A DNA stretch of 50,058 nucleotides, the filler included, from Diploschistes diacapsis (taxonomy: Eukaryota), in assembly GCA_023645945.1 (NCBI GenBank). It is 15 parts of 15 records of this genome, joined end to end, with 100 filler letters (N's around TTAATTAATTAA, not from the genome) between each part and the next. Parts side by side here need not be neighbours in the genome. Positions count along the whole stretch, not along the records: positions 2,207 to 20,028 come from JALAIB010000435.1; 14 more parts are not named here. One strand, given 5' to 3'. Position 1 is the first letter of the stretch. Every line of letters starts with the position of its first letter. The notes beneath the pieces are model-generated. The model was not told the DNA's origin. It searched no databases and worked only from the letters and a program-made list of their open reading frames with translations. Position numbers and translations under genes: made by a program. Positions 1,933 through 24,538 of this stretch are shown piece by piece.

Positions 1933-2363
1933 AACTTTTAATAAAATAACATCTTTTTTTACGCTAACGTTTTATATTCGAAAAGTTTACTTTACTTTCG
2001 TATTCGTGACAAATTTAAAACGTTAACCGAATATTAAATATTCAAATGAATTTATAATAACCGGAACTCGAAAATATTATCCGCCGATTTATTATAAATA
2101 ATGATTNNNNNNNNNNNNNNNNNNNNNNNNNNNNNNNNNNNNNNNNNNNNTTAATTAATTAANNNNNNNNNNNNNNNNNNNNNNNNNNNNNNNNNNNNNN
2201 NNNNNNGGGCGGGGGAGTTTCGTGGCTCCATACTCGAGCAAAGAGTAACATCACTTTAAAAAGGAGGCAGTAGGGTCCATAGGTAGAGCCCACCGCCCTT
2301 TTTACTTGTTCTCTCTCCTCTTTTTTGCCCTCTATATCAACACAGCAAAGACCGCCAACTCAC

Positions 2364-2632
2364 CAGAGCTCCCACTCCTTCCTCCCCTCGACCGCCTTCG
2401 CCTCCTTCCCTTCCCCTTCCACTATCCCCTCCAGCTCCGGACACCCGTCGCTGAACCCAAGGCCAACGTGGATGACCTGCATGCCCATCGAGCGTGCAGC
2501 TCCCATCGCTCGAACGGCCTGGTCGATGACCGATGCAGGAGCATTCGTGAATTCGAGGATGCTCGGTTGGATGTCGAGGGTGAGGAGGGCGGTGCTTTGG
2601 GGGTCGGCTAGGGGACGGTAAGGTGGAGTCAT
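2364..2632 (-). CDS. Isochorismatase-like (cysteine hydrolase) family protein, 5' part only
   Basis: MTPPYRPLADPQSTALLTLDIQ...AARSMGMQVIHVGLGF..G.PE matches the family N-terminus (ALLxxDxQ, VIHV). The frame ends at a GTGAGT donor (2363). The remainder is not recoverable before the contig end. Confidence 0.55.
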
Positions 2633-2966
2633 GGTTAGGTGTGAAAGTGGGTTTGAGGACTGGAGAAATTTTGAAAGAAGTGCTGCTTTTTGAGATGGTG
2701 GATCGATCGCTTTCATCTTCTTGAGAAGCCCGTGGTTTAGGCAATGAAGCAGTGACGCGGCGGTCTAGCTTGGGGGGGAAACGACCTTGCCACAACCGAG
2801 CAATGTTTCCTAACTATAAAGGGGATTTGTCGTTTATGAGTTTGTTTGGAGGATCCTTCCAGCAAAGATAGGTGGAACGACAGTGGTCAAAGGACGTGAA
2901 ACATGTTTCTATACAAACAGAATGGGCTAAAGTACTCCGTAAAACAACATCGCTGATAGAAGTCAC

Positions 2967-3734
2967 CTACTTTACACGTCCACCCTGTGATTTTTTCCCA
3001 GTTCCCAGAGTCTTCCCAGTCACTGCATCCTTCCCATCCTTCCTGTTCCTCGCCTTTGCACCGATCGTCCTTCTCGTCTTCATGTACTGGGCCACAACAC
3101 CCGACAGATCCCCTCTGTCGTGCTTCGGCTTCCTCATGTACGTCAGCCGCGCCCTCCTCGCCCTCTTCTCTGCCCGCTGCACAATTTCGATACCAGACAC
3201 CAGTGGACTATACACCTTCACCCAAATCTCCGTCGCTGTCCGCAACAGCTGGTTCCGCAAAAGTATAGCTGTGTCAACGCCGCGCCGCCGGATGTTGATA
3301 CATAAGCCGGCCACAGGTTCGCCGTTCCGGAAGCGCACCAGGAGCACGTCGCCGACATTGGCTTGGTCTATGTTCTTTTTCGAGAAGAGGCGCGTTCGCG
3401 AGGACGTCGGGTCTAGGCGAGAGAGTTCCGATGCTGTGAAGGCTTGAAGGGGCTGAGGGCAGGTTTTGCGGACGGATGGGGGAGGAGGGAAGATTTTGAT
3501 TTTTCGAAGGCCTAGTGGTAGGCATTAGTCCTTGCTTTGGATGTTCCAGCACCGTTGCACATCCATACCTTTCTTAGGTTGATTCAGGAAACCGCCTGGA
3601 GGTTCTGAAAAGATTGGCGTGGGTGTTGAGGTTACCATTGAAAGCTGACGGTACTGCTGTCTCTGCTGGCGCATTTGTCGTAATGCGCTTTTCAAGCAAC
3701 ACAATGGTCGACCTATGGAGATAGAGGAAGACAT
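2967..3734 (-). CDS. img1: Mitochondrial ribosomal protein bL19m (Img1-like), 236 aa; intron 3512-3568
   Basis: VGDVLLVRFRNGEPVAGLCINIRRRGVDTAILLRN...VYSPLV.GIEIVQRA.KRARRARLTYMR is the L19 signature. It has an Arg-rich presequence, and the GTATGG...ACTAAT...TAG intron joins the exons in frame (166+545 nt). Confidence 0.92.
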
Positions 3735-4118
3735 AGTGTGCTTTTCGTGGGGAGGTAAAGGAGTTGTAGTGAAAGCTGCTGCAGTTCTTATGGCTTCGCG
3801 GAAGGGAGATGTCGTTGGAGTCGGGAGATTTCCCGGGATCCAGTATTCTGTCAGCGCTAAGTCAATGTATGTAACAATCAACCTTTCTTAAGCTACTGAT
3901 CTGTATCCCTAGGGTGTCTTAATAAGCAAAAATACGCTGCAAATGCTGACGGTATACTCATATTTGCACTAAGATTTTGTAGACCAGCTCTTCTTGACCC
4001 ACACAAAGCCTTTCAAGAACCTTCATACGTCGCCCTTGTACCTCAAATCCTCCCTTGGATTTCTATACGCTACTTTCGCTACTTCGAGTCGCATTACAAA
4101 CCTTCTCTATCTACTCTA

Positions 4119-5298
4119 ATGGCGGCGCGAGCCCCAGAGGCGTTGCGCAACTGCCTCCGCCAATGCACCGCCAAAAAGCAAACCCGAAGCTTTTCTTCCA
4201 GCTGTCGACGGTGTAAGAATGGTAATACGTATCAGTCCCCAAAGCAGTGTGCCCCTCCATTTACACCATCTAGGTCCGCTCACGACCTTCCCCCAAACGT
4301 CCTCCCCTGAGCTTGACTCCATCTTCTCGACCTGGCGCCGGACCGTCTTCTTCCCATCCCACCTCCCGCCCCAACACACCAGCCTGATATACCGCAAGTC
4401 CCTGCAGCACTTCCTGACGGGCGAAGAGCCCATGTCGGCCAAAGTCGTCACGTACAAGCCCCTCGCGCACGAGAAACCCAAAACGGAAACCTTCACCCTC
4501 GAGCCCCTCGACCACTTCGACGAGCCCAACACGCGCGCCGCCTTCCACCGTGTCCTCTCCCTCCTGCAGGAAAAAAAGGACTGGGAGGTCTTCGCGCACT
4601 TCCTCAACGAGCTGCGCCTCTCCGGCCGCAAGATAAGCCGGGTGATGGTGCAGAGGATAATCAAGAAGGCTGCGCACACGGGCCACATGGGCATGGCGAT
4701 CGAGCTGTTCCGGCGCACGCCGCTGACGGGCCTGCGCATCGAGGACACGCAGATCGCGATGGAGATCATGCTGGGCGCGATGCACAGGGCCGTCGCGGCG
4801 GAGTGGGGCGAGGGAGAGTTGGAGCGCGCGCAGAAGAATGCGGAGACGGCGCTGAGGATGATGGCCGATCCGAACCATGGGCCTGAGGATGTGGTGGCCG
4901 GGCCAGCGAACGAGGCGGAGGTGGTGGGCGTGCCGCTGGCGCTGGCGGGGGCGAGGGCGGTGAAGTATAAGGGGGGAAAGGATGAGGAAGGGAAGGTCAA
5001 GCAGCATGCTGAGCGCTTCGCGGAATGTTTTCAAGGGAGGCGGCTGGAGCTTGATGGGGGCAGTGCGGTGGAGGCAAATCTTTTTCTTGCGCATTGGGCT
5101 CCAGCTTGGTTTGGGATTCACATGGCGTCTAGGATTCTCCAGGGAGAGCCTGGGATTACGGATGCATTGAACGACATCGAAGTCTCGCAACTGGATCCGT
5201 TGCTGAAGCGAGCTATGGAGTCTGCGGAGTCTCAAGATCCGCAAGCGGAGAAGAGGAGGGGAGTAAAGCTGTATAATAACCTTTCTTCTATGATTTAG
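4119..5298 (+). CDS. Conserved-type hypothetical mitochondrial protein with helical/PPR-like segment; intron 4213-4273
   Basis: Presequence MAARAPEALRNCLRQC...TRSFSSSCRR, a GTAAGA...TAG phase-1 intron joining a long ORF, and strong GC3 codon bias. Confidence 0.75.
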
Positions 5299-5377
5299 CC
5301 GGCTTGCTTGCAATTTTCGAAACCTAGATGCACATAAGGAGATGGTCATTTCACATCGTGGTCCCGCGTAAACGCTA

Positions 5378-7142
5378 TCATTCCAAGGACAGGGTATGAT
5401 CATCGCCAAACGTGCCGACAACACCAGTATTCACGGTACCACCCACCACAGCCGGCCCGCTGACAACAATCCACCCGCTGGGGTTGTCATAGCCTTCGTC
5501 GGCTATCTTCTGCTGTGGCTGCTCGACGACCTTCAGCTCGATGGAGCTTAGCGGCGCTCCAAAGTGGGACCTGCTCCTCGACTTCGGGTCTGGGCGGTAA
5601 TCGTACACGTGGGTCTGGGCAATAGCACCGGCTACCTTGGCGGCGGTGAGTGCATAAACCACCCGCGACCCGGTGAAGACGCGCACATCGGACAGCTCTT
5701 GAGAGGTGAGCGGAACAGAACCCCCTCCTGCCCGCTCTGAGGTAAAGATCAGGCGAGGACATTGCTGGTTGAATATCGTATTAGCGCCACGCATGGTACC
5801 GGCAGCCAAGGAGCTGGCTTGACGAGAGTTGTGGAGCTTCTGAAAGAGGCTTTGATTCTCCTTAGTTTTCCGTGCTTGCGCCTGAGCAATTGTTTCGGCA
5901 GATGCGATTACTACCGTCGGCTTGATTCTCTGGAAGGCTAGATCGAAGTCTGGAGCCGAGCCTGCGACGGAGGTGAAGGCGATCGAAGCATGCGAGAACA
6001 TTGCAGCTAAGAAAATGGTAAGTGGAAACATAAGAGTGAGTGGCTCCAGAGAAACTACGAGGTCTTTGCTCTCGTAGCGCATATCACGGTGGAGAGCAGC
6101 GATTTGAGCCGCTACTCCGGCAATGATATTCTGTTGACGGTAAGCTCGGGTCTGGCGTAAGAAGCTAGGAATACTTACGGCCTGCTTGAACTCTACAATC
6201 TCATACGAGCTTGTGTTCTTGGATTGCCAAACTGAAACCACATCCGGAGCGTTGTTGATGTCTGTGTCTGTAGGCAGCTGGGAAGTCACGCCCTCTTTAT
6301 TCTTTTCAACGAGATCATAGTACGTGGAGCCGTTGTTGCCCACCTCCGGCTCCAAGAAGTCCATATGCCGACTGGTCTGTTCCACACACCAGACAATGTG
6401 CTTCAGATGTGGCCCATTCTTGGTCAAATCGCTTTGGGAAACAACGCCAGCAGGAGCGAAGATGACATCAGGCTTGGTCTCTTGGAGCAGTGAGCCCAGC
6501 ACCTCGGCAGTCTGTCCTGGCGGAATCAAAATCGGTGAAGCGTTGTAGAAAATACAAGCTACATCCGGTCAGTAGAACAGCAACAGGTTATCCCATATGC
6601 TTCTCACCAAACAGAGCAACAAGAAATTCTACAGAGTTTGGAAGATATATAGCCGCCCTCTTGGCTCCTAGGCTTTGAATATGCTTGCCAACAGCATTGA
6701 TCTCCTTCGACAGAGTCTCAACGTTGTGAGAGATTGGCTCGTCCTTTCCTCTGACACTCAATATCCGCATGGCATCTTCTGTCGAGCCACGAGGCTTGGC
6801 TACCTCTCTCCAAATATCTCTCAGATCGCCATCCCGCCCGGCTGACCATTTAGAAGCTCCATCATCCTTCACCTTAAGACCGCTTCGTAGAGGATATCCA
6901 TGTGGAACGTCAAGGGCTCTATAGGTAGCAGATTCACCTGTTTGCCTCACGGGAGATGGTGCAGCTTGACGAGCAAGCAGTAGCGGGTGGGTGTCCGGCT
7001 CAGCGCCTAAAAACAGCGGTAAGACTAGACAGGCGATGAATGCGGCAAGAAGTAGAGTAGAGTAGATACTCCAACCAGCAAACAGGGTGTCAAGCTGAGC
7101 ATCAATGGCTCCAAGGAAAGACGTTGAAGACTCTGCCATCAT
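5378..7142 (-). CDS. AMP-binding/acyl-CoA synthetase-like fold protein with N-terminal membrane anchor; introns 6559-6607 and 6131-6178
   Basis: Two long ORFs joined by canonical introns. It has an N-terminal TM segment, PDTHPLLLARQA, AIYLPNSVEFLVALF and HFGAPLSSIELK. A canonical adenylation P-loop is not evident. Confidence 0.75.
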
Positions 7143-7570
7143 GTTTCTGCAGTGATCTCTAATTATGGGTCGAGTAGTGGGCTGAGAGTAGAATACATGA
7201 GAAGTCCATGTAAGCTTTCAGCCCTAGAATTTACTGAGTAAAACAAAAGGACTTAAATTAAGTTACCCCGTGAAAGTTCATATGCTATATAACCTAACAT
7301 TGCGGCTTCAATTCGGCTTAAAGTCCAATATAGGTAATTAGATACACTAATCAAAATAAAGCAAAAGCAACGGACCTTTATAACTAGGTAATTGAAGGAG
7401 TTCTTAACATGGCCTAACGGCGCGTCTTTTTCGGCGAACTGGAGACTGTTGCCTCAACTTAGTGTTCTTACAGAGGTACCTCCCGTAGTATATCTAACAA
7501 CCCTCCAAAGTTTTCCAGAGGTAGGGTAAAAGTCTATGGCCTTCTTTGAAGATAGCTTCATCTGGTCCAG

Positions 7571-9860
7571 CTATAGATCACGTGTAGAGGCATATCCATC
7601 TCCTCTATTGCCCAGACTCCTGGCTTTCGCCACCGAATCGCAAATGTACGCTATGACGACGAAGCATAACGGAGGCATCGCTTCAGAGCGTCCGCAAAAT
7701 CCGCGCCGTCTGTCTCGAATCCTAGCGTCAGTCTGCCCGGCTGCATGTCTCCCATCGTGTGGCAATCCTCCAAGCCCTACACCACAATCGAGGACCAGGC
7801 GTCCAGATCCGAAATGTCCAGACCCGATTCTCGCTCGGGGGTCGACGAGCCAGTAAGTGGGAAAGGAGAAGATTTGTTGGGAAAAACCAAAGATAAGGGG
7901 CAAAGGCCGGTATGCGGTTTATTTGGATTAAGTGGATGCTGAGTTGAACAGTACTGCGCAATCATTAGAGACACGTTACAATAAACAGAGGAAGCATGTG
8001 GACTAGGTTTCGAGTCAGATCTGTTGCGGCTTCAGTCGGAGCATGAGCCCAAGCATAATGAAAATAAGAATCTCACCCAGTCCAAAGCCTTTCGCGTCGT
8101 TCAACAGTCAATCCCGGGTGGTTTAGAAAGATCGTTGTAAGCAAATAAGGGTGGCCGTTGATAGCACGGTGAGTGTAATCCTCGCCCACGAAGAAAAAAC
8201 GCCTGGGTTTGCCGGATTGGTCGCTCTAGAGAGACTCGTGGGTCAGCATGGAAGCATTGGCCAATCGGGAAGGAACGAAGCCTTCTTCGGGTATTCCTTA
8301 CGTCGGCATCCTGTTGACCAGGGTATTCACATTGCCGTGAGGTTTCTGGTAGTAACTGGGGAGGAGGCCAAGCTCAGCCTGAATAAACCAGTGACAGCTG
8401 TGGACACGATTCAAAAGCACGTGTGTAAACCGAGTCATTTCGTAGCGGCTCATCGCTAGCCTCGCTTACCTTTGCATATCCCATTGGCTGCCCTCCGTTC
8501 TGCAAAACGTTTGCGAGCCGTATGAAAGGGGTGTTGGTTATCGAGACAAACAATGTGCCCCGAATGCGACGGTGCATCTCGTGAATCAATGGGTCCAGTC
8601 GGGAATAGGCGCACTCCTGATGCAGGCCCATGCTCTGTGCGATGCGCACAACACTGCTGATAAAGGCTAGATTCTTGAGCGCTTCGTCATCGGTTTCGAG
8701 CAGCTGCGGCCCAGGAGCGATGCCACCAAGGCGTTCAATGTAGGACACCGCGTATACTGACAATACTCTAGACTGTTTAGGTAGGCGGTTCCGAGTTGGT
8801 CGACAACGGTTTCCTTGTTCAGACTCATCAGCGATTGGGCACCTTTCCAAAGACTTGATGGCGCCGCAACGGCACCGGAATAGACAACGGAGAAAAGAAG
8901 TGGGATTAAAGTGGGGTCATCGATGAGTCTTTGCGTAGGGGTCACGTTGTCGCTGTGTCCATACTAGTGCTAGAAAGCGTTGTGCTCTTTTCGGAACGTA
9001 GGCAGGTGGACGATCAGATGGATAGACCGGACACCTACAAGAAAGAATATAGGAGGATATCGCTGACGGGTTTCTTAGAAATTCCTTGTAGCAGGTCAAC
9101 GGAGACGCTCCACAATGCTTCAGAATTAGGAGGGCCATGGATATCGTTAAGGAGCTTCTCGCAGAATGCTTCCTGCTCCCGTTCAGCTAAGATTATACCT
9201 ATCCGGTGCCCAATACTCACCTGGCCGTTCACAAGAGCCCAAAAAGGGCTCTCCACATAGCGTGGCGGTGTGGCTTGTAGGCTGCTGGATACTTTGTGAT
9301 AACGACGCCCGGCCAAGGCTGAGCATTAGCCAACGTCTTGCCCCATTCTCGAATGTGGTTTGAGAGAGGGATTGACGCTAGGCGTGGTAGGTTCGCTGCA
9401 AACGCTGCTCACCTTGGCCGTATTCTCGGTTTCATCGAAACCAGAGTCGGAGCCCGTGCCGGAGCCAAGCAAGAATGAGCTTGGGGGTGCAGCAGGTTCG
9501 ACGGCTTCGATAAAGTCAGCGAAACTTGTGGAGGTAGATGGCGGCTCTGTCGTCCGTTTTTCCTGCTGTATCTCATGATTAGGGAGCGGCTCGGAGGTGT
9601 TGGTCGAATTACATCTGTCCTTGTACCCGCTTTGAGAGTATTCACAAGTTTCGCCAATCGTATCGAAGAGTAACATTCTAGGGGTGAAGGCTGGCCGTCA
9701 ATATGGCTGCTTCGTCTGGCCCATGTGGCTTATGGCACAGTCTCATACCGGTCTCTGTTGGCTACAATTGCTCATTAGCGGCTCGAGAAACCACATGGAA
9801 CGTGGTGATAGAGGGTTGCATGCGTCTCCATTGCGCCCAACAACGCGTAGAGGCAATCAG
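7571..9860 (-). pseudogene. Zn(II)2Cys6 / fungal-specific transcription factor pseudogene
   Basis: Fragments lie in different frames: degenerate cluster NCSQQRPV*DC...GETCEYS, YVESPFWALV, LLFSVVYSGAVAA, CPTLNALVASLL, and VVRIAQSMGLHQE...EMHRRI (Fungal_trans domain motif). There are multiple frameshifts and stops. Boundaries are approximate. Confidence 0.75.
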
Positions 9861-10654
9861 CCAGCGTTGCACGATTAGCTGCGCTTTGGCACTCATGATC
9901 GAGAGTCAGGACGGTGAAGAAGAGCTAGGAGAGGACGACGACGTGGGGAAGGGAAGGTGTCGAGTATTGGGTGCTTATGGAGGTTTCAGCTGGTAGAGTT
10001 CGGTAGATCTTCAGTTGTTGACGATCAGAGGGAGCATTATCACATCTCGAGGCTGTGCCGCGGCCAAGTTGTTCGTTATTGTTTTGATACGGCTCTATGG
10101 AGATTCAATAATCAGCACTTGCATTCTATCTGGAATGAACATTGTAGATTAGGCTGGGATTCTTTTTTAACTTTGCTAAAAGGTTAATAAGCAGACCTCT
10201 CGCGCTTAATCCGCCTGCTGTTACCACGGTAGTGGTGATACCGTTGTGGCTCCCAGTGCGGAATAGTAGTTACCGTAATAACATGCTTTATTTAGCCCAA
10301 GGAACTCCATTCCTTTATAATTTCCTTGTACTTCAGCTATGTGCTGTACTTCCTTTCTGTTATAAATGTTCTCAACCGCCGAAGTGCCTAGATTGACTTA
10401 TAACCTATTGTAAACACAAAAGAATTCGACTAGAGTGACCGAGCTGCATGGCAGGTTCGGAGTACCCTGTGGTGATGAGGGCAGTAGAAAGGGTAGATGG
10501 ATTGGATGCTCTAGGAGCTTGGGGAGTGCCTTGACCATATATGTGGCGGCGTAGTGGTAGGTGCCATGGCTGCGTCTAATAAGACAAGGTCATATCATCA
10601 AAGATCGAGTCTGGCCTCGTCACTATAAGTCTCGCTTAAAGGCCATGCATACCT

Positions 10655-11210
10655 TTAGACACGCCCATTCCGAACGCTCCTATCGGCGGGCCCATCGCCC
10701 CTTTCTGGTCTATCCTCCGTCCACTCCCTCTCCTGTTTCAGCCGCGGAATCACCTCCGCAGCCGCCAGCCACGCCACGCCACGCTCTCCCTCACCCCACC
10801 TGCGTCTCCCCTGCGAGGAGCCTGTCCATCATCTCCGCATGGCTCACGATCGTCGGCGTTGGCGCATAGGGGAAATCGCTGCCGTACAACACATGGCCCT
10901 GCTCCGCAAAGTCGAGCAGGAATCTCATCGTATAGGAGATACCGCTCAGCGCGAGGTCGAAACAGAAGCGCCGCGCATCGGCCAAGAACTCGTGTGGCGT
11001 CTTCCGGGTCAAGCCAGCGTCGAAAGCGAGGTGAGCGGCGCGCGTTGCGAGGAAGGGGAACGTGCCGCCGGGGTGGGAGAGGATGGCTGTTTTGACGCCT
11101 TCAACTCCAGGCTTGTACTCGATACTCGGGCGTTCGGCAAATAAGGTTTGGAAGTACGGGGTAATAGTTGTGGGGTAATAGTTGTGCGGGGTTGTACAAC
11201 TCCATCATCA
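10655..11210 (-). pseudogene. Amidohydrolase_2 family decarboxylase remnant (6-methylsalicylate decarboxylase PatG/YanB-like)
   Basis: GVKTAILSHPGGTFPFLATR...ARRFCFDLALS...LLDFAEQGHVLYGSDFPYAP. The C-terminal EVIPRL is in another frame. There is no intact N-terminal HxH motif, and a 14-bp tandem duplication lies near 11158-11185. Confidence 0.8.
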
Positions 11211-11346
11211 ATATGTAAGTAAAATAAGAGCCACAAATGTGAATATATCAAGTGGGTATCTAGGCTGTTGGGCTGTCAACAAGGACTTCTATACTTCTTA
11301 AAATCCTGCAGCATCTTTTCGTTCTTGCGGCAACCTCATCGCTAAA

Positions 11347-13152
11347 ATGCTGGAAGATCTCAGTTTACTATTCTCATCCCTAACCCGGCTGACCGTTGGA
11401 GCTTTAACCTCGCTATTATTACTTCTTCTTCTTGTTGTAGCAATATACATCGCAGTCCGCTATATCAAGGATCTCAAGCTCCCACCAGGTACGTATCGTT
11501 AGCGTTCCATGTCAACTTGACTGTGCTGATAAGCCTTTGATGATAAGGTCCTCCAGGACTGCCCGTCATCGGCAATGTTCACCAAATTCCAAAGACGGGT
11601 GCTCATCATCATTTTACCGCTTGGGCCCGGCAATATGGTGGTATATTTTCCATCAAAATCGGTCCAGCCACAGCAGTCGTCTTAACGGACAGGCGACTAG
11701 TGAAAACTCTGATCGACAAGAAGTCCTCGCTTTACAGCGAACGTCCAACCTCCTTTGTTACCAATCTCATTACCCGTGGAGACCACTTACTTGTCATGAA
11801 GCATAGCGGGAGGTGGAGGCAAGTGCGCAAGCTTGTCCATCAACATTTCATGGAGGCTATGTGCGATAAACAACATGTTGTTCTTCAAGATGCCGAAGCT
11901 GTGCAGATGATCAAGGACTTTCTCATCCAGCCAGCCATGGGCGCGAACCACATGAAGAGATTCAGCAACAGCATCGTGATGAGCATCTGTGAGTCGATCT
12001 TTTACTTACCTCTGGCGTGCAGTGAACGTCTGGGCTCAGTTGTGCATAGTGTATGGCATTCGTACTCCCGTTTCGTCCACTTGGCACATGACCGAGCTCT
12101 ATGATATGATGGAACGCTGGTCAAAGATTACAGAGACAGGCGCAACGCCACCAGTGGACATCTTCCCCTTCTTGAAGCTTGCCCCGGAGTCATGGTTCGG
12201 TAACTGGATCTCTCGGGCCCGAGACGTCGGCAAACGTATGGATGCGCTATACGGCACCATGAGGAAACGTGTCGTGGCACGACGTATGGCACAAGGCAGC
12301 GGGGGGTCCTTTTTTGACAACGTGCTGGATGTGCAAGAGAAGCTAGGTTTCAATGACCATCTAATAAATTTCATCGGCGGCGTGCTGATGGAGGGTGGTT
12401 CGGATACAACGAGCTCAATGTTGACTGTTTTCCTTCAGGCAATGGCCAACAATCCAGAGGTGCAGCGAAAGGCCCACACAGAGATCGATTTGACTATTGG
12501 CGAAGACAGAACGCCACGCTGGTCCGACTTCAAGGATCTGCCATATATCAACCAGATTATCAAGGAGTGTATGCGTTGGAGACCTGTCGCGCCACTCGCG
12601 TTTCCCCACGCGCTTGCACAGGGTCAGTCTCTCATTTGCCACCTTTCTATTAGCGCTAACGTAATATACGATGCAGACGACATCGTCGATGGCTACCACA
12701 TCCCCGCCGGCACGACCATTATTATCAACGTCTGGGGCTTGCACCATGATCCATCATACTTCGTGGACCCCGAAAAGTTTGACCCGGACCGCTACGCTGG
12801 GAAAACAGCTCTTGCTCCGGAATACGCTGCTGGTCCCGACTATGCCAACCGAGACCACTACGTCTATGGCGCTGGGCGACGTATCTGCCCTGGTATGCAC
12901 CTTGCAGAACGGAATATGTTTCTGGCCATAGCCAAGATGCTGTGGGCATTCGATATCAAACCCAAGGTCGATCCTAAGACGGGTTTGAGGGCGGCTATTG
13001 GGACAGACCCGATCTTGGACTATACGGAGGGTTTTCTGGTGTGTCCTAAGGATTTCGTATGTGACGTACAGGTCCGGTCCGAACGGAGGCGTGAGACAAT
13101 CTTGAGTGAGTATGCCATGGCCGAAAGTCGCGTCTTCGCAAAATATGAATAG
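11347..13152 (+). CDS. Cytochrome P450, CYP619-like (PatH/PatI/YanC-type cresol hydroxylase), about 543 aa; introns 11489-11547, 11989-12049, 12623-12676
   Basis: TM anchor, LPPGPPGLPVIGN, TDRRLVK, DHLLVM, ETGATPPVD, FIGGVLMEGGSDT (I-helix), ECMR, PDRY and RDHYVYGAGRRICPG (heme Cys). Spliced exons total 1632 nt with no internal stop. Confidence 0.93.
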
Positions 13153-15299
13153 GTGTTTGCTGCCTTGAGAATCACGTGGAAGTGATCAAAAAAGTTCGAA
13201 AAGCTGGTGCCTAAATCTATGTTCATATTTTGAGAACGCGCCCGAAGACTTCTGTTGTATATGATTTTCAGACGCGTCCAGGAGCCTTCGGGAGGATCCT
13301 CATCATATAGGGCTCGTTAATAAAAAACACTTGGCCGCCGCCCACACGTGCAGGGCTTGATAGACCAGATTATCCTCTCTTCACAAAGCATGCTGTTACT
13401 ATATAAAGTGTATATAGTGACGTGACGTGGAGCCATTGTGCCTGTATATTCGGGGCCGGGTAATCATGATATCCTCTCGGTAAAACACAGATCTCTCTAT
13501 CTTGGCAGATGCTCTGCATAGAACTCGAGGTTATCTTAATGCTGTTCATCTTTACACTCAACTTCTTTACCAGATAGAAACAAGAACGTTCCATCTTCAT
13601 GATGCTTCAAGGTTTCCCAAAAGCATGCTGGCGGGGAGAAAAGACCAAGGGTGGGAGTTGCGGCGTGTAATATTCTGTAAATCTCGCCTTCCACTAACCT
13701 TTTAAACATACCCATAATAAAGCAGATCCGCCGAGCTCTATAAAAACACTCTGACGAAGGAGATGAAGAAGCAGACCGAGGAGAGGAAAAGCTAGGCCGG
13801 TACTCGAATGAGTATCTGGCCCTGTCGTCAAGTACTAAGCATGCCCAGCACGCTTTCGCAGTCGTGAATATCTCCTCGAAAGCTGCGGGCAGCTGAACGC
13901 CGTAGATATTGGTATAGGTCATCGCCTGGGGGCAGGTACGGAGGACGTACCGCCACGTCCGCACTGAACGCGGCTGGGTGGTCAAGCGCCGACTGGTTGT
14001 AATTGTAGATCAGGCACAGGTCTGGAACGAGCCTAGGCCAAATAGCGGCTGGTTTGTTAGGTTACGGAATCTAGCACATGCGATGCGCTTGTTAGTAAAC
14101 TGCCGTATCGTATGGTAGGATGTGATACGGAAAAGAGTATGCCCGAGGCCGGCGCGCCATCTATCTTTTCTCTTGTCCTCCTGTCATAAGAGAATCTCTC
14201 CCGGCAATAGGGAGTGAGGCGATTCGCGCGAAGATTTACACCTCAATCGGATAACCCCCCGAGGTCTCTGACCGCAGCGAGATCTTCCAGCTCGGCGGCT
14301 CGCCCACCGCCTCGTCGGGTCCATTCCACGCAATCGAGCGGGTTTCGCGACCGTTGGTGCCGTTTACCGTCGTGTAGCCTCCAAAGCCTGGGTTTGAAGG
14401 TTCCGAGTAGGGTCTGCCGCAGGTAAGACGAGCCAACAATGTTCCAGTATGGTGCCTGAATCACCACCACGTTTGCGAAGCGGAACGGAAGTCCGGTTCC
14501 TAGCCGATCGACAGAGGGAAAATGGATCGCGACGCGCTAAGAAACGCTTGTAAGGTCGTAGAGCATGACCACCAAGTTTCTTGTGCATTTTTCCTAGTTT
14601 GAACAGCGTCTGGCCTTTGTGACCCGGCCTCACGCCGATGTTCCAGTAGGCCTCACTCGCTTAGGCAGCCGATGGTGACCCCGGGAAAATGGCAAGCGGG
14701 CTCAAATAAACTAAATAGATTGAACGAAGGGTGTGAAAGAGAACATACAAGACAAGCGCTCCAGCAGCTACAGTGGACGGAGATAGGTGAACCCGGAACA
14801 TGTCTCGAGCAACTGGGAGAACATTTTGTGATAGGAAAATGCAAATCTTGGATCACTGCCCATGAACAAAAAACGGTCCAATACTTACATGACATTCCCA
14901 GTTTTTCCATGTCGTAAGAGACTCAACTGATTGCCCGTTTCTTGGACTCAATAGCTCGTGTAATAATTTGCTGAAGTAGAGCTATAAAGATCCGGCCGAA
15001 AACCCATAGAACGAGTGAATTATCGGCCGAAGTACAAAATCAGGAGAAAGTGGCTAGAAAGAGATAACCAACCACAGGCCTAGACAAAAGCCCTACTATC
15101 TGGCTGAAGTAAGGATGTTTAAACTATAGTCAGGGCCAAGTCGTCAGATGGGGTGACCACTAATCGAAGATGATGAAGGGCCTGTTAAAGTTTTCCAGCT
15201 GCTGAGAGTCGCGAGAGCTTGCGACATACGTAGCGTGGCTTCAAACTCGCGTCGCGGGCCATGGCTGATCTCAACGCCAGCTCTGACCAGCTCCGGTCT

Positions 15300-15915
15300 T
15301 CAATCATCTGTAGCAACAGTAACGCCGGTTTCCATGCGGGCCAGTTCATGGGGTGTATCGTTCCTTCTTGCCGTGTTGACACCATGTTCCTCCTACCGGT
15401 CTCCGCTGCGGTATGGAATACACTTACTCCAAATAACTGCAACTGTGCAGGCATATCCGGCTCCTCCGCCTCCCATGCCTTCCATACCAGAGTTGGTATA
15501 CATTGGGGGTGCTGCTTGGAAACTTGACGTTCCGCTACATCAACCGTCTCTACCTGAGAGTGCCCAAGAAGACCTTTCACCGCATAACCAAAGAAGGCGC
15601 CGCTGAGAATACTAGCAAGCTCTCAATCCTAGGCAAGTTCTTCTCGAGCCTCGAGCTATTCATTACCCGGGATATTGGCTGGAACTGGAAGGTAGGCGGT
15701 ATTTCCCGCAGGAAATCGCAGACTCGCGCACAATTCTGCGATCCTGCTTCTTTAAATGGGTTGCCATGTGCACTGCGTCGTATGTGATCGAGTGTTAGCT
15801 ATGGCATGGTTCTCGAAGGCTTCAAAAGTGTAAAGGATCCAGAATTGCGGAGCACACTTGTGCGCGTGGCAGGCAATGAAGTGTTCTTGTTATTTTTATC
15901 ATGCTTGCGCCTGCG
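15300..15915 (+). pseudogene. Membrane-bound O-acyltransferase (MBOAT/wax-synthase-like; YanI/MacI-type) 5' remnant
   Basis: Hydrophobic segments, then LELFITRDIGWNWKVGGI..RAQF, matching the RGIGWNW motif of fungal secondary-metabolite MBOATs. Frameshifts near 15505, 15737 and 15795; C-terminal half absent. Confidence 0.65.
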
Positions 15916-16671
15916 CTGATGGATTCGATGGAGCCATCTCAGTAGGAAACCTTCCTCGGCCTCCTAATCGGCAATTCGAGTTTCAAGGCTTCATGTGCTC
16001 AAGCAGAGGGATTTACAAGGAGCTCAGCAAGAACGGCCAGAAACCGCCTACATACTTCCATCCCTACCAGTGGGAAAATTTTCGCCTAGGCGAAGGCAAC
16101 TTGACCATCAATCTTGGCGGAATTCCTCGACATTTGACACCGGAAAGTGGAGTGATCGTTGTTGCACCCTGTACCCACCATGTTGTTTATGGAACGCCAG
16201 GAATGGAAAGAAACGAAGTGGAGTTCGTCATCAGAGCAAGCGATAACAAAGTGAATAACCCTGTTGTCCTGAACAAGGCCTTCTTCGAGAACTGGTATGT
16301 GGGTACCAGTAAGATGTTTTCCAGCAAGGGCAAAACCAGACTGATACAGATGCTCTCTGTATGCTTCTCCCAGGAATTAGCCATCTCATAAAGCTAACAA
16401 AGGGTTCGCATAGATGTTTAATGGAGAATGGGAATCTGTTTCGCCTCCGGTGTGAGCCTATATCGGCCTATTCCTCGGCATCGTGATAGGTCGCTGGGTT
16501 GGAGGTATGTTAGGTTATGCTCCATTCTACCCTGGGTGGACGACGGATTAGCAAGCAGCTTGCGATTAGATGGAAAAGAGCTGGTTCGAACGGCGGCTCG
16601 CGGCTCGCGATGCCCAAGAGAAATGCAGAAGGCGCATGAAGAAAGACACCGGGACTGGAAAGACACTGTGA
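15916..16671 (+). pseudogene. Cupin-type oxidoreductase pseudogene (PatJ/YanE/OpS7 family)
   Basis: FDGAI...PPTYFHPYQWENF..GEG.L...LTPESG...IRASD...LNKAFFENWY, then GIVIGRWVGGMLGYAPFYPGWTTD*QAACD*MEKSWFERRL. Three in-frame stops in the last exon, a frameshift after FFENWY, and no start. Confidence 0.8.
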
Positions 16672-18967
16672 GAATGTGAGAGGTGTTTGATTGAATGATG
16701 GAGAGAACAGTCCATCTGAAGCCCACACCGTAGTATAGTCAGCGCTCTCTTCTAGACTTGATCCATGCTTTATACCAGTATCCTGGGAAGTCCCTGCCAT
16801 GTCCAGGGCTAGTTTTCCTCAAGTTCGCATTGGAATGGCTCATATCCGATATACATGAATGTCTGTATGATGTCGAGGGCGATATGGATTATTAACACAG
16901 TGAATACCTCTCTCACCACTTATGTGTACACAAACACTTCGAAAGATGCTTCGGATTAGTCAAAATCATGATATTACGGGGGAGGATGTTGGCGGATCTG
17001 GTCCCGGTTATTCGGACCGTTAACTTGGCGCTGAATCATAATATTACCGGAAAAAGGTAACACCGCAAACGAAAAATAAATATAAATAATGGTCCAAATA
17101 ACCGCTGCTAAGCATCTTGGCCAGAAGCTTGGCTTCTTGTTGTATATACTCATGCTTGCTCTAACAGGGAATAGCTATCAACCTACAGATACAGAGTACC
17201 GGCGCCCATTGATTATGATACACCAAAGCCCAACCTGCCGGCTTTTAAGTAATCCTTGAAAGCGTTGTATTCTGGTGCTATACGGGAGCCAAAACTCAAT
17301 GTTACAAAATACGCTTGAAGGGCAAACTGGATCTTAACGAGAATATTAATGTCTCCATAAACATAGGACAACACTCTACTCTGTAATATATACGGAGCTC
17401 TAGGGGTCTCTCAAGCATGGCCCAGTAGGTGGCTTGAGAAAGCGAGGCTCGATGGTTGCAGTACTTTGAGCCACTTACACCTGTATATGCGGCAGTTGAA
17501 GCCAGTCTGAAACTTGCATCCGTCGGGACCGACAGCGGCTATGTGCATCACGGAGCCTCTCACTCAAATCATCCGCGCCTAATCCTCCCTGTTTCCTCAA
17601 GCCGAGGTAAAGTCCCCAGCTCGGAGTGACACGAGCGGAAAGAAAGTTTAATGGACGCCACTGAGCATAGACTACTTCGGGCGTTGATTGATAATGTTTT
17701 GTTAAAGATGTCTCGGGATAGAGAGTTGTTCCACACAACTGCTCGAGCTGATTTGTTGCCTCCATGTTACTTAGCTTCCGTTTAAGATAGCACGTCGCCC
17801 GCGATGCAGCAGCTGCCACGTTTTTCTGCAAGTTTGACAGCTAGGGTTCCGAACTCCTCGGTCAGGGCATTCTCATATCCGTGGGACAAAATTGCCTATT
17901 TCGTCTCGCCTCAAGTGGTAACGTTGAGATATATATTGAATATAAACTCGTAGCAATTCACTCATTGCTTCGTTTCAAAGCGCCAGGACTTCGCATACTA
18001 TTCACCGATAAATCTTGAGAACTTGCGATAGTACTCCATCACCAGCATAAGACCTTCATCAATCCTCAATAGACGTTAGTACAGACGAGTCAGTCTTCAA
18101 CATGTCACGTCAAGACCCGCCTTCCCCAACCCCATACCCTTCGGCACCTCCTCCAAGTCCGTCGAACCACTGGGACAACAGCTTGAGCAGTCATTCCAAG
18201 AGACAGACATCCCACGTAAGATGCCTAAAGAAATCTTAGATCCGACGAGCCATGGCTCACACCAATAGGGTGAGCAGATCAAGGGACTGAAAAACCTTTG
18301 TGCTCAATGAGTGCCCAATTGCCACGCTTAAAGAGATGGAAAAATAGATGAACATGAAAACGAAAGGATCACCGAAGGCGCTTGTACAGAGATCTCAAAG
18401 GAAAAAGGGTGAACGCGTTGCATCAACATCGAGTACTGCTTTCAGGTTGATTCCAAGCTAGTATGACCAAGGCAATGCACTTGGAGACGCAATAGTTAGA
18501 CTGAATAAAATACAATGAATCAGATCATGTTGTGTACATATGCATGTGACCAGCAATATGAATGCTTCCCAGAAGTCAACCCTTATGTAACCCTGAATAT
18601 GAAACGCTACAAGATCGATTGAATACGATTGAAGCGCGATTAACGACAGGTATCGATCTCAGAACCTCGTAGATGCAAGCAAAATGCTCACATATAAGCC
18701 ACCTTGACTTCATCAGCATTGTAGCTCCGAAGGCGATGAAAAGGTTCTGTAGAAGAAGAAAAGAAGAAGAAGAAGAAGAAACGTCGTGGGGACAACCTTC
18801 GACAATTATCGTACTACAGTCTGATTGGCCCGCGGGCCCTTCCACCGAGGTTCAACTTCATTGGCGTCACGAAACTTCAAGTTGCTCCCACCCGCTTCAC
18901 CATCATCTTCTCAAACACTATCCAGAGTAGTGCGGGCATTGTAGCTTGACATACGGCTCATTTCACG

Positions 18968-19728
18968 ATGCTCGCACAAAGGGTAGCGCAGCAATCGCTG
19001 CGAAGAAGGCGTAGGCGGATCCCATTAATCCCCATTCCCCCCTGACGTACGTGCTAAGCAGCTCGCAGTCGCCATCCAACGACCAGGAGCCTTCTCCGCT
19101 CTCGCCCTGAACAAATCCATCGCCCCCTCTACACCTCTCGCGATCCTCAATGGCAGCCATCAAAGACGGTATGCAGCCCCTTCCGTCCCGTTTCCCAGCA
19201 CCATTCCCCTCCCAAAAACCAAGAGACAAACAAAGAAAGGAAACCACTCGACTGACGAAAAACCCCCCTCTTCTCTTCGCCAACAGACTCGCCGCCACAA
19301 CAAACATCCCCCAAGATCAAGGCCACGACATCCTCGTCAGGCAGCGCCGCAACCGCCCCGTCTCCCCGCACCTGGGCATCTACCGGCCGCAAATAACATG
19401 GTTGGCATCGGCCTTCAACCGCCTCACGGGCTCCGTCCTTTCGGGCGCCTTCTACATCTTCGGCTTTGGCTACCTCGTCCAGCCGCTGCTGGGCGTGCAC
19501 ATTTTCGAGTCCTCGAGCCTGATCGCCGGCTTCGCCGCCATGCCGCTGTGGGCCAAGGTGCCGGTCAAGTTCACGCTGTCGCTCTTCTTCACCTTCCATG
19601 GCTTCAATGGGGTGAGGCATTTGATTTGGGATACTGGGAGGCAGTTCAAAAATCCGCAGGTTATTCGGTCGGGGTGGATTGTTGTGGGGTTGAGCGTGGT
19701 CTCGGCTTTGGGGTTGACTTTCTATTAG
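18968..19728 (+). CDS. sdh3: Succinate dehydrogenase cytochrome b560 subunit; introns 19011-19068 and 19169-19286
   Basis: MLAQRVAQQSLRR presequence, QRRNRPVSPHLGIYRPQITW...NRLTG and FHGFNGVRHLIWD, with three TM helices. Confidence 0.95.
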
Positions 19729-20239
19729 GCTTTGTAGTTGAAGCTGTGTGTTGCGTTTCAAGATTGTTTACATTTGATTGCTACTCGGTGCCTTCGCTGG
19801 ATGATCGCACTGAACCTTCATGTCTCGTTCAGGCACTGATCATATGGCGTACCCATCACAACCGGACTATGAACCTGCAACGCCGTCGCTATGCTTCGAC
19901 ATCGTAAATCCAAACGCATAAAAGGTATCGACCCCACAACGAAAGCACGGATTATCGCCCCCTCCCTCGCCCTCTTCCACCGCCCATGCCGCCCATACCA
20001 CCCATCAGATTCCCCAGCCCACCAAGATNNNNNNNNNNNNNNNNNNNNNNNNNNNNNNNNNNNNNNNNNNNNTTAATTAATTAANNNNNNNNNNNNNNNN
20101 NNNNNNNNNNNNNNNNNNNNNNNNNNNNATATTTATTTTTTAATAATTTTAGAATTATTATATTTATTTTTTACGTTTTTATTTTTTTATCGCGGTGTTT
20201 CGGTAAATTCACGATAATATTTCGATGAATTTACTACAA

Positions 20240-20475
20240 TATAATGTCCGTGGTAGTATCGTGTTTTAAAATTTTTGGCGGTAATGTCCGTGGAAGTGTC
20301 CGTGTTTTAAATTTTTTAACCGTAGTATCCGTATCCGTGCTTTTACTATAATATAATGTCCGTGGAAGTGTCCGTGTTTTAAAATCTTAGCGGTAGTGTC
20401 CGTGGCAGTATCGTGTTTTAAAAATTTTCTCGGTAGTGTCCGTGGAAGTGTCCGTGGCACGAAACGGCCAGCCTA
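20240..20475 (-). mobile_element. hAT-like transposon terminus (TIR TAGGCTGGCCGTTTCGTGCCACGG) with GTGTCCGTG subterminal repeats
   Basis: An identical 24-bp end is at 24929-24952. The tandem TGTCCGTG arrays lie inside the end and the flanks are unrelated. Confidence 0.6.
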
Positions 20476-20559
20476 GGATAAATACTGAAATATTAAAATA
20501 CTATTAAGGACCGTATCGGAATTTATGATTTTTAATAACCAAAACTAATCCTAAGAAGT

Positions 20560-21131
20560 ATAAAATAATAAATACGACGATATATATTAATAAAATGACT
20601 TATCGGGACGTCAATTTACCCCTTAATACGGATGATTTTGTAAAATCCTTCGCAACATAGGCCGTAGGTTCTTTAATGGACATATTTTTAAGATACGATT
20701 AGTATACCTTTTATAAAAGGTCTCGTAATCTTACGGCCTTTTCGACTCCCTTAGATCTATTAAAGAATACTATTTTGCTATAAGGAGATATTAATTCGGT
20801 CGGATAGTTTATACGAATAATAATGGTTATCTTTGTCGATCTTCTTCATATAGTTCAGCCCTTTTTTAACGATTTTAGAATTAAGGGCCTTAAATATACC
20901 TATAATGAAGAAAAAGTTTTGCTTAATATACGGAGATATATATTTAAATATATTTAGAATATCGATTAAACCCTTTATACGATAGAAATAATAGATGTAA
21001 TTGTTTCAAAAACGAAGTTATAATGATGCGTTAAAAAGTTAAAGATAGTAATCTATCTTTACACCCCGGAAAGACGCTTTCTAGAAACTAAGAAGGTCTT
21101 AAAAATAATAGATTAATCTATTCCTTAAGAT
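20560..21131 (+). mobile_element. RIP-mutated Ty3/Gypsy reverse transcriptase fragment
   Basis: DIFLRYD*...SRNLTAFSTPLDLL..TILL*GDINSV..F and QPFFNDFRIKG (degenerate xxDD motif). Stops are TAA/TAG-type. Confidence 0.8.
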
Positions 21132-21231
21132 NNNNNNNNNNNNNNNNNNNNNNNNNNNNNNNNNNNNNNNNNNNNTTAATTAATTAANNNNNNNNNNNNN
21201 NNNNNNNNNNNNNNNNNNNNNNNNNNNNNNN

Positions 21232-21700
21232 CGTTATAATTAAATCGCTAACGTCCGACGGGTTAACGACGATTATCTTACGGGATATTATTTTAAAATA
21301 TAACGCCTCCGATAATATTATATCCGACCGAGGGCCGATATTAACGAGCCAATATTAGTTTTAATTCTGCCGTATCATATAAGCGAGATAGCGCTTAAGC
21401 ACCGCTTTCCATCCGTAATCTGACGGGTAACTAAAACGTCAAAATTAAACGTTAAAACATTATTTCCGTATATTTTATTGCGAGGGCCAAGATGATTAAT
21501 TAGAGCTATTATTATTAATAAAATTTTCGTATAATGCTACGTATAATTCGACGATCAAAATAATCCTATTTTATACGTATTATAATTATAAGCCGAAAAT
21601 CTATTTTAATTTCGAGGTCGAAGCCGACGAAGGAAAAGTACCCGCTATTAAAGCGAAGGTTGACCGCATGTAAAGCCGCACGGGTCTAACTTATAAAAAA
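21232..21700 (+). mobile_element. RIP-mutated Ty3/Gypsy integrase fragment
   Basis: IISDRGPILTSQY*..FC...RLSTAFHP*SDG*LKRQN*TLKHYFR corresponds to IVSDRG/STAFHPQTDGQTERQNQTLE with CAA changed to TAA. Confidence 0.88.
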
Positions 21701-21761
21701 TATCAAGCATGCCTAAAAATAACAAAAGAAATATTTCGATTAGAAGCATCTACCCTATACG

Positions 21762-22234
21762 TGAAACGCCAGCGCAGGAAAGGATGCTTCTCTACCGGGG
21801 GCTGGGCCTGATCCGGAAGGATTAGATGTAGCTGGGCATCTGTAGGTAAAAGGTCTCGATTCGAAAAGCTGAAGAAGAAACTATTTAGGTGGGAGGAGGG
21901 CACCGTTAAATAGTGTGGGTGTTAGGCTTACCGGGGTTCGGGGACTACCTATCTACACAGCCACCCCCTGACCCTGCCGTGTCTTGGCAAGCACCTGGAC
22001 ATTAACCTTGCCGTGTCTTGGTAAGCACCTGGGCATTAACCCTGCCGTGGCTTGGCAAGCTTAGCTTAGCAGGTTCCTAAACTGGGCTATTTCATTATCC
22101 CTCTTTCTAGATACTTGTATCTTTTATAAACGCGATATTTTTTTTTTAGTCAATCTTTATCTCGATCTTTACTTTTTTTTCTAATTTATTTAAAAGGATA
22201 CCCGTTATTTTTTTATAATAAATGTTTCCGTCTC
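21762..22234 (-). mobile_element. LTR family A 3' LTR (21762-22094) with adjacent purine tract and internal 3' region
   Basis: On the minus strand AAAGAGGGATAA|TGAAATAGCCC...GCTGGCGTTTCA. The internal part matches 25655-25786. Confidence 0.85.
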
Positions 22235-23057
22235 NNNNNNNNNNNNNNNNNNNNNNNNNNNNNNNNNNNNNNNNNNNNTTAATTAATTAANNNNNNNNNN
22301 NNNNNNNNNNNNNNNNNNNNNNNNNNNNNNNNNNAATCGATAAAATAAATATTCTTATACGTTTAACATACGATTTAATTTTTAAAACTAAACCGAATAC
22401 TCGAAGACCTTTATACAATAATTTAAATAAAGATACATCGTATTAGTTCCGTGTTGATAACCGCGTTATCGATAAAATAGAATACTTTCGACGAAAAACT
22501 ATTATTATTAACGACCGAAAACATTTAAACCACATAATATTCGACGAATGTAAGAACTTTAAATATAAACTATTAAAACATAAAATAGAAACTTATATCC
22601 TTTACAAATAAATCGCTATAAACGTTACTTTTTAAACTTACTACGAAAACGTTCTAATAGACGAACAACACGAAGATTATCGCTTCCTATACGACTGCAG
22701 TAAAAAGAACTGTTACACTCATTACTACAGCCTAAAACGAAAACAGAACGGAAGAGATCCATTAACGTAAAATAAAGAAAACGTCACATCAAAGTTTTAT
22801 TTCGCTTTTAAGACGTGTCGAATTAAAAAACACGATCATCTTAATCACGCGATCACGTACCCAGCAAATTATTACCGCGATAAATATTATATAATTTTAA
22901 TTTATTACGACTGGAAACTTTAAACCGGTATAATTCGAAAACTTAATTTATTTAACAAAAATTTAATATATTTAAAGCATATACGACAAAATTATCGGTT
23001 TTATAAAATAATAAGCTGTAGATATCACGATAAAGGTTTTGATTTTATTAATAAACA

Positions 23058-23235
23058 TGTTGAGCAGGCAGGCAGAATGCATGGCTGGGAAGTTCAGCTG
23101 AACCTACTGGGGTTCCTGTTAATCCTAATCGGGAGTAATGCAAGTCTATAATACTTAATAGATCCTATTGATATAATAACTTATATATAGATTATTCCTT
23201 TTAATTAAATTTCTAGATATTTAGATTTTAATACA
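23058..23235 (+). mobile_element. Probable solo LTR related to the Copia LTR at 323
   Basis: Starts TGTTGAGCA and contains the GTTCAGCTGAACCT palindrome shared with the Copia LTRs. No TSD confirmed. Confidence 0.5.
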
Positions 23236-24138
23236 TGCGTTATTTAAAAGATTATAATTCGAATTAATTTACTATCCCGTCGCGTTTATATATTAAAAGT
23301 AATATTTCCGAGCAGGTATCACCGTTACAACTACGGNNNNNNNNNNNNNNNNNNNNNNNNNNNNNNNNNNNNNNNNNNNNTTAATTAATTAANNNNNNNN
23401 NNNNNNNNNNNNNNNNNNNNNNNNNNNNNNNNNNNNTTATATAACCTAATATTCCTATAAGAAAGCCGATTTCGTCGAAATTATAAATACCCGAATCGAA
23501 AATATTATATTTATTAATCACGTTACGTATGAGTGTTATGATCTCTATCTCTACAAAATATACACGAGTAGGATCAAGGTGGGTTTGATCTCTATTAGAA
23601 GAAGAATGTGGTAAGAAAAGAAGATAAAGTAGTTATAAGTCTTGGATTATCTCTGGAAAGAAGGCTTTAAGGTGATAAAAGTAACGAATATAGATTAATC
23701 CTAAATAATAATTTAAGATATCTATAAAAATGAACATATTTTAAACTTATAAAGACTATAACGACGTTTTTATATAATCAATAGATCCCTTAATGAAATA
23801 AATAAATAAATAAATAAAATTACCGTTCTTTCTTTCTATTTATAATTAAGTAGAATGATCTTTTAGACCTTTTACCCATCACGTGACCCGTGTCACCCTG
23901 ATTAGACTATATATAAGGAATGGTTGGGAAGTGCCCGACTAGCTATTGCGTGCCAAGTACTACCGACTAGTGCCTTGGATCGTAACATCGCTGCAGAATA
24001 ATGAAATAAAGGAAGTTCGCAAAAACCAAGCTTTGCTATAAACTCTGATCCACACGAGAGGACTGGTGCAGACAAAGACTTGCTGCTGAAGCTCCAAAGA
24101 CGCTCTAAGAAATAATCGAACAATCGTTGCTACCAAAT

Positions 24139-24370: not shown

Positions 24371-24538
24371 CTTTTTTTTTATCTGTCGTAGTCGTTATGA
24401 CTGCGCGCAAACGGGATGTATTGATATACGTATATCCGNNNNNNNNNNNNNNNNNNNNNNNNNNNNNNNNNNNNNNNNNNNNTTAATTAATTAANNNNNN
24501 NNNNNNNNNNNNNNNNNNNNNNNNNNNNNNNNNNNNNN

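Follow-up and report, generated by a model that had tools for sequence, protein, structure and literature searches.

Sequence comparisons indicate that a lichen-associated ascomycete very probably carries the remnant of a yanuthone/macrophorin/paraphaeone-type (farnesyl-epoxycyclohexenone) biosynthetic gene cluster, in which a single gene, encoding a CYP619 cytochrome P450 (P450), is still intact. The locus lies in a 50,058 nt window of the Diploschistes diacapsis assembly GCA_023645945.1, the window being a set of contigs strung together by N linkers. Apart from the relic locus, the contig concerned (G000:C3724; window positions 2207-20028) has genes for ribosomal L19 and an AMP-binding protein, and the succinate dehydrogenase gene sdh3; its introns and protein matches identify the host as an ascomycete. 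Between the AMP-binding gene and sdh3 we recognize six cluster genes, of which five are broken and one, the P450, is intact. A preliminary description of this DNA had listed a transcription factor (TF), an amidohydrolase, the P450, an MBOAT acyltransferase and a cupin, and these five are indeed present in the order given; the list was incomplete, because a sixth relic, of a YanH/MacH-type P450 (14824-14571, minus strand), had been overlooked. The same description had proposed a fossil cluster of the 6-methylsalicylic acid (6-MSA)/epoxycyclohexenone type, a proposal now supported by the homology of six neighbouring loci to cluster enzymes.

In the ancestral pathway, whose steps come from the literature and whose assignment to the relics is inferred from homology, a 6-MSA synthase (6-MSAS) would have made 6-methylsalicylate, which a YanB-type enzyme would have decarboxylated to m-cresol and a YanC-type P450 would then have hydroxylated this to toluquinol. 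A UbiA enzyme would have prenylated toluquinol, after which the cupin would have epoxidized the product, with YanH and the MBOAT enzyme adding further decorations. The synthase and the prenyltransferase appear to have been lost outright, and five more genes would have decayed through deletions, frameshifts and stops without a signature of repeat-induced point mutation (RIP). The YanC-type P450 alone remains intact, most likely under purifying selection.

The P450 gene (11347-13152, plus strand) comprises four exons (11347-11488, 11548-11988, 12050-12622 and 12677-13152) separated by GT-AG introns. It encodes 543 aa with one terminal stop and no internal stop, and the I-helix (EGGSDT), ExxR (ECMR), PDRY and heme (YGAGRRICPG) motifs are all kept, as expected of the intact gene described earlier. 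In a quick tree of 41 rows, the window P450 pairs with an unnamed protein, P0003 (support 100), and the two are sister to the 17-row YanC/MacC set with a Shimodaira-Hasegawa-like approximate likelihood ratio test (SH-aLRT) value of 98. The pair stands apart from eight rows taken from, or grouping with, patulin-like loci, which were so classed by gene context (two CYP619 genes, a decarboxylase and a cupin), named Pat sequences being outside the reference set. Segments covering substrate recognition sites (SRS) 5 and 6 are like those of YanC/MacC and unlike those of patulin-like loci. The next best match in a CYP619 search of the same genome is only 29% identical. CYP619 enzymes are known from Lecanoromycetes, once within a polyketide synthase (PKS) cluster, according to the accessible part of PMC10608907.

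The strongest marker of the yanuthone/macrophorin/paraphaeone branch is the second P450, of the YanH/MacH clade, of which a 5' stub of about 80 codons from the first exon is left (14571-14824, minus strand). This stub carries one frameshift, one stop and a 2-codon deletion; the remainder is absent, and the MacH tail does not align downstream of it. A 77-residue read-through of 14798-14568 (minus strand) matched 25 proteins at E ≤ 0.001 among 1.84 billion, and the best two (E values of 1.5e-18 and 4.1e-17) are P450s, both in the MacH/YanH clade. Identities of the second of these (P0182) are 80% with named MacH and 81% with the cluster containing named YanH. The clade is sharply bounded, since identities to P0182 run from 81% to 48% and then drop to 34% or less. 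Aligned to residues 15-90 of YanH (P0342), the stub is 62% identical (E 2e-23), and it is the sole orthologue-level match among 72 in its own genome. Furthermore, the YanH-clade member and a YanC/MacC-like CYP619 gene are 3-5 locus tags apart in seven named genomes (Aspergillus niger, Aspergillus brasiliensis, Penicillium rubens, Penicillium mononematosum, Chlorociboria aeruginascens, Diaporthe citri and Stachybotrys chartarum). In work by Holm et al. in 2014, YanH is said to perform methyl hydroxylation and YanI to transfer mevalonate onto that hydroxyl. YanH-clade P450s were also seen in the lichen-forming fungi Dirinaria, Teloschistes and Lobaria, as was a ParE-type cupin in Dirinaria (P0218, P0223, P0375 and P0160), which suggests that yan-type clusters occur in lichen fungi.

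The broken amidohydrolase is a 3' relic of a YanB/MacB-type 6-MSA decarboxylase (10730-11084, minus strand; YanB residues 211-326) with one frameshift near 10820 and about 210 N-terminal codons lost. Positions 11084-10824 match residues 211-300 of named YanB (P0139) with 59% identity over 90 aa, and identities of this piece are 57-59% to YanB/MacB-type proteins versus 42-49% to decarboxylases of patulin-like loci. The N-terminal 205 residues of YanB gave only shuffle-level scores against the locus and only about 260 bp are left before the P450 start codon; therefore the N-terminal part is physically gone. At its start (11076-11100) the relic has a stretch with ILS as its last three residues. 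YanB has this tripeptide near residue 52 and again at residue 211, and the missing part may have been lost by deletion between these two short similar sequences. Sequence upstream of the stretch scores no better than shuffles.

The remaining relics are an MBOAT gene, a cupin gene and a TF gene. Of the first of these, an MBOAT_2-family acyltransferase that is YanI/MacI-like by context, the 5' half is left at 15261-15918 on the plus strand (aligned over 15463-15918, the start being estimated). With at least four frameshifts, an abrupt end at the cupin and no C-terminal half, it is broken as had been noted. The aligned part has 68 of 153 residues identical to the MBOAT protein of L039, an unnamed macrophorin-type locus (score 268, compared with a maximum of 49 in 20 shuffles), and its identity to that protein is 44-48%, versus 27-35% to paralogues in its own genome over comparable lengths. 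The adjoining cupin relic (15924-16671, plus strand) is likewise broken, having lost its first 18 or so codons and acquired two frameshifts and four stops; its first metal-binding His is replaced by Tyr. It appears to be ParE-like rather than PatJ-like, its main block (15924-16662) being 60% identical to P0124, compared with 26-37% to the cupins at patulin-like loci over the first exon block. P0124, a full-length relative, has H62, H64, E69 and H104, the same four metal-site positions that are reported for ParE in the accessible part of PMC12720273. No solved structure matches this relative.

The TF relic (7571-9900, minus strand, outer limits estimated) is of the Fungal_trans type and has at least four frameshifts and two in-frame stops. 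Its aligned core (9171-8082) reaches a frameshift-aware score of 212 against the TF of locus L033, which none of 15 shuffles attained (maximum 56.5). The Pfam Fungal_trans match is weak (E 0.036), and for a stop-free 98 aa piece a Fungal_trans cluster (59% of members) was among the top three look-alikes, at 0.93. The earlier view of a broken Zn2Cys6 TF is borne out as regards a fungal TF with frameshifts and stops; the zinc finger itself was not recovered above shuffles with any of four reference fingers.

Genes that a working cluster would need were sought with L039, which came from a metagenome scan yielding 52 loci and contains genes for an MBOAT protein, a Pyr4-type cyclase, a 6-MSAS-type PKS, a CYP619 P450, a UbiA protein and a flavin adenine dinucleotide (FAD) oxidase. 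In that locus the macrophorin-like cluster (L039:1-15646) stands in long open frames, with a PKS of 1798 codons, and its P450 falls among proteins of Peltigera, Pseudocyphellaria and Chlorociboria rather than beside MacC. When pieces of the L039 PKS, UbiA, cyclase and FAD oxidase proteins were aligned to 13160-14580, 16690-18950 and 9960-10740, all 54 alignments scored 27-47, within the shuffle range of 23-50 (four shuffles each). A six-frame Pfam search of 7201-18902 read through stops found the P450 only, and no PKS, short-chain dehydrogenase/reductase (SDR; YanD) or FAD oxidase (YanF). As far as these two approaches go, the preliminary statement that no PKS, prenyltransferase or SDR is present here holds. 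The SDR and FAD oxidase were not found at the locus, to which the search for these two was confined.

The rest of the genome gave a similar picture. With the L039 PKS as query for 6-MSAS there were 35 matches, the best showing 33% identity over about 890 aa among the 26 of 115 candidates that were scored, and with the C-terminal half of the PKS there were 29 matches of 24-40%, all partial pieces (34 of 34 candidates scored; 27-40% for the best short pieces). The UbiA farnesyltransferase (YanG/MacG) gave three matches of only 27-33%, none of them at the locus, and the Pyr4 cyclase gave no match. Searches for a second YanB returned one further match at 26% and those for a second cupin returned none; for YanB, YanC, YanH, the cupin and the MBOAT gene alike, the genome searches showed no further orthologue-level copy. 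The locus therefore fails as a working yan, mac or par cluster, because no synthase and no prenyltransferase was found, and production of a farnesyl-epoxycyclohexenone is not expected. Absence of 6-MSAS and UbiA genes from a fragmented assembly is no proof of their loss.

Where these genes might have stood is suggested by the order of named clusters. The yan gene set is listed in the accessible part of PMC8362661, and from accession order together with the accessible part of PMC7806857 the arrangement is C-B-(2 genes)-H for A. niger and R-C-B-(2 genes)-H for P. rubens; the prenyltransferase lies between decarboxylase and PKS (PMC9780802, accessible part). The expected site of G and A coincides with the YanH break, which would fit a deletion there. 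Between the intact P450 and the YanH stub is a 1.4-kb interval (13160-14570) without a reference match, in which no PKS, UbiA, cyclase, FAD oxidase, MBOAT C-terminal half or YanH tail was detected. It holds several open stretches of 100-157 codons, is present in two other sequence runs (X2 and X3, below) at about 2.5-3% divergence, and may be a further, unrecognized relic. A second MBOAT gene at 13600-14900 (minus strand) was considered and rejected, with the MBOAT C-terminal half scoring 32 against shuffle means of 34-36.

To judge the lesions, contigs of four runs were compared over 6900-19400, differences being counted among the contigs listed. Runs carrying 7500-16800 were X1 (a lichen metagenome, the best), X2 (organism A, from another study, with 0.45 of sampled words) and X3 (a rock metagenome from a third study, with 0.28 of sampled words); run X4 gave three short unrelated matches only. 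X1 matches 7302-17389 with no differences at depth 110 and is possibly the source of the assembly, not an independent witness. X2 covers 30 of 30 bins and X3 covers 29 of 30, both colinear with about 2-3% substitutions. The MBOAT/cupin junction is bridged by X2 record 14 (15222-17054; 1833 letters, 4 gap letters) and also by X3 record 21 (15641-16106), and X2 record 11 (10870-13049, 2159 letters) joins the decarboxylase relic to the P450 and likewise lacks the missing 600 bp. The reach of X2 record 13 beyond the YanH break is only 25 bases, too little to count. None of the listed joints and loose ends adds cluster sequence, with a further 40 loose ends and 171 pieces outside the listing. Because contigs of other studies bridge them, the MBOAT/cupin and decarboxylase deletions are not assembly errors. 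These two largest internal deletions show that decay is older than the divergence of the three strains sampled. The process continues, since the TF stop at 8226-8228 is a sense codon in X2; for the stop at 8298-8300 no change is listed. As a cause of decay, RIP was rejected because dinucleotide indices of the relics resemble those of the AMP-binding gene.

These results allow other explanations of the locus to be weighed. That the breaks are assembly or sequencing errors in a functional cluster might be suspected from a fragmented assembly of metagenomic origin, and small lesions have been compared only partly with other runs, as 313 substitutions and 65 indels lie outside those listed. Nevertheless, this explanation is already refuted for the large deletions, one or both of which recur in two other studies, and has next to no probability overall: the X1 contig shows no differences at depth 110, the genes beside the locus on its contig retain long open frames, and lost gene halves are not a product of read errors. 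A relic of a patulin/epoxydon/terreic acid-type (non-prenylated) cluster would share the decarboxylase, CYP619 P450 and cupin, which are common to those clusters (PMC12720273, accessible part), and would fit the lack of a prenyltransferase. This origin, an alternative in the preliminary description, is very improbable and largely refuted by the presence of the YanH stub, by the position of the P450 outside the patulin-like rows, by the nearer affinities of the cupin to ParE-numbered proteins and of the decarboxylase to YanB, and by the occurrence of one CYP619 gene at the locus against two (PatH and PatI) in patulin clusters. A split cluster, or a working duplicate elsewhere that leaves this locus a dead spare copy with one working member, can draw on the division of the assembly into 4361 contigs but is improbable, given that eight gene types queried in the genome gave no orthologue-level second copy.

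A yanuthone/macrophorin/paraphaeone-type remnant is thus the reading we favour, and several points weigh against it. Gene order here is R-B-C-gap-H-I-E, with B and C divergent, in contrast to R-C-B-G-A-H in A. niger and P. rubens. The raw identity of the P450 to YanC/MacC (56%) is only slightly above that to patulin-like P450s (45-51%), the protein is as close to stand-alone CYP619s (60% to an L022 protein), and its tree is a quick search without bootstrap. The MBOAT, cupin and TF relics are putatively assigned as YanI, YanE and YanR by family and context, named references being outside the comparison. The assembly (29.1 Mb) comes without a completeness figure, and of 115 candidates in the full-length PKS search 26 were scored. 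The MBOAT gene had been offered as the pointer to the yanuthone/macrophorin branch. That branch is supported by the SH-aLRT value for the P450, the YanB identities and the YanH stub, but the MBOAT relic itself is tied only to the unnamed locus L039.

The intact state of the P450 was set against the damage around it. By a conservative hand count, the five relics have 18 frameshifts and stops in 2630 aligned nt, whereas the 1632 nt P450 frame has none. About 11 disablements would be expected there at the relics' rate (P 1.4e-5), making selective retention probable, and 4.7 at the rate of the least-damaged relic (P 0.009). For columns invariant in 14 relatives, the P450 keeps 118 of 121 (relatives' leave-one-out range 0.93-1.0), against 63 of 73 in the relics (Fisher p 0.005), with the YanH stub giving only three usable columns and one reference being out of register. 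Within the P450, one X3 contig differs at 1 of 349 positions, compared with 102 of 4219 for the seven remaining X3 pieces listed (post hoc Fisher p 0.004; eight pieces listed of 38 records). These statistics suggest that the P450 was probably kept by purifying selection after the pathway had died. On the other side, the disablement count was made by eye and assumes simultaneous loss of function in all genes. A joint in one X3 contig falls on the final codon of the P450. The X2 contig over the P450 includes 23 gap letters whose positions are outside the listing, and a P450 lesion could be among them. The same fossil cluster with an unselected P450, either the last gene released in a staged decay or intact by chance and now drifting, is unlikely, albeit with appreciable weight. 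It agrees with the divergence of that X2 contig (41 of 2159, or 1.9%), which shows no clear drop relative to seven other listed X2 contigs (1.7-3.1%), with the loss of any pathway partner to supply m-cresol, and with the absence of an RNA run among the listed runs carrying the locus. It does not account well for the missing disablements, the preserved invariant columns, the low X3 divergence, or an end branch (0.23) no longer than that of the sister protein (0.28).

If the P450 has been retained by selection, its likeliest substrate would be an outside alkylphenol, because no 6-MSAS or decarboxylase remains to supply m-cresol. We hypothesize that it acts as a stand-alone hydroxylase of small alkylphenols. 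Stand-alone use of a CYP619 enzyme has parallels, because the L022 gene lacks recognizable cluster neighbours. That gene (L022:3132-4213) is close to a Pleopsidium protein, none of 12 frames scanned around it is a recognizable cluster gene, and its nearest identified neighbour is a chorismate-binding/glutamine amidotransferase gene. A more specific and rather doubtful proposal is that an m-cresol hydroxylase was kept to hydroxylate outside alkylphenols of the lichen or rock habitat, such as orcinol-type products of lichen depside breakdown, orcinol being 5-hydroxy-m-cresol. If true, this would let one follow how a biosynthetic tailoring P450 was redirected to detoxification or catabolism while the dead cluster still surrounds it.

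The flanking genes lie outside the cluster. The AMP-binding-domain gene (5378-7142, minus strand) has long open frames and Pfam AMP-binding matches on two exons (E 6.2e-9 and 0.0028), and the last coding frame of sdh3, for the succinate dehydrogenase cytochrome b subunit (19111-19728, plus strand), has a Pfam Sdh_cyt match (E 2.9e-24). A search of 2200-20100 found no Rfam family. A short dispersed repeat at 17000-17111, 80-91% identical to pieces on at least eight other contigs of the assembly, shows a depth spike in X1 and X2 and has no Rfam match. Between the TF and decarboxylase relics, the non-coding segments 10411-10573 and 10597-10684 match three other contigs at 73-80% and are possibly old mobile-element remnants. 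Elsewhere in the window, 20129-28845 is a row of AT-rich contigs of about 1 kb (GC 0.26-0.37) with TpA excess and CpA/TpG depletion. This composition resembles that of RIP-mutated repeats, and these are separate contigs unlinked to the relic locus. Long open frames at 41546-43435 (629 codons) and 4120-5298 (392 codons) have no Pfam match at E 0.01.

Among known systems, the yan (Aspergillus niger), mac (Penicillium terrestre/rubens) and par clusters share with this locus the YanB-type decarboxylase (59%), the YanC/MacC-clade P450 (56%), the YanH/MacH-clade P450 (62% over 75 aa), a putative ParE-type cupin motif, and an MBOAT gene and a TF gene in one block. Unlike them, the present locus has no detected 6-MSAS, UbiA, SDR, FAD oxidase or cyclase gene, five of its six genes are broken, B and C are divergent in a different order, and the host fungus was found in a lichen sample. 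Patulin (pat) and terreic acid (at) clusters use the same decarboxylase/CYP619/cupin chemistry on 6-MSA, but the gene lists in the accessible part of PMC12720273 include no YanH-type P450, and the window P450, cupin and decarboxylase are more distant from the patulin-like versions. Decay of this family has precedent, as the yan cluster is lost or degraded in Penicillium expansum, P. digitatum, P. roqueforti, P. camemberti as well as P. oxalicum (PMC4700700), although the accessible part of that report gives no gene-level anatomy and no selective survival of YanC. According to the accessible part of PMC3318441, the dead bikaverin cluster of Botrytis cinerea also has one structural gene missing and others as pseudogenes, while a single gene was preserved selectively, presumably for a different role. 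In that horizontally acquired cluster the surviving gene is a regulator; here it is an enzyme.

Given these published cases of Penicillium yan decay and of single-gene survival in the bikaverin cluster, the locus is a new instance of a known phenomenon, and the surprise is limited because cluster decay, in the yan family as well, is already documented. A literature search, with subscription papers outside its scope, found no publication that deals with the locus or with a yan-type cluster of a lichen fungus. What is new here is the host habitat, the six-gene anatomy and an apparently selected orphan YanC. The locus is a gene-by-gene record of the death of a fungal natural-product cluster, where genome mining would turn up nothing but an orphan P450, and it singles out one enzyme that has likely survived in a new role. 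If read correctly, it indicates that yanuthone-type chemistry, a class of antibiotic-like compounds, once existed in a fungus now found in lichen and rock samples.

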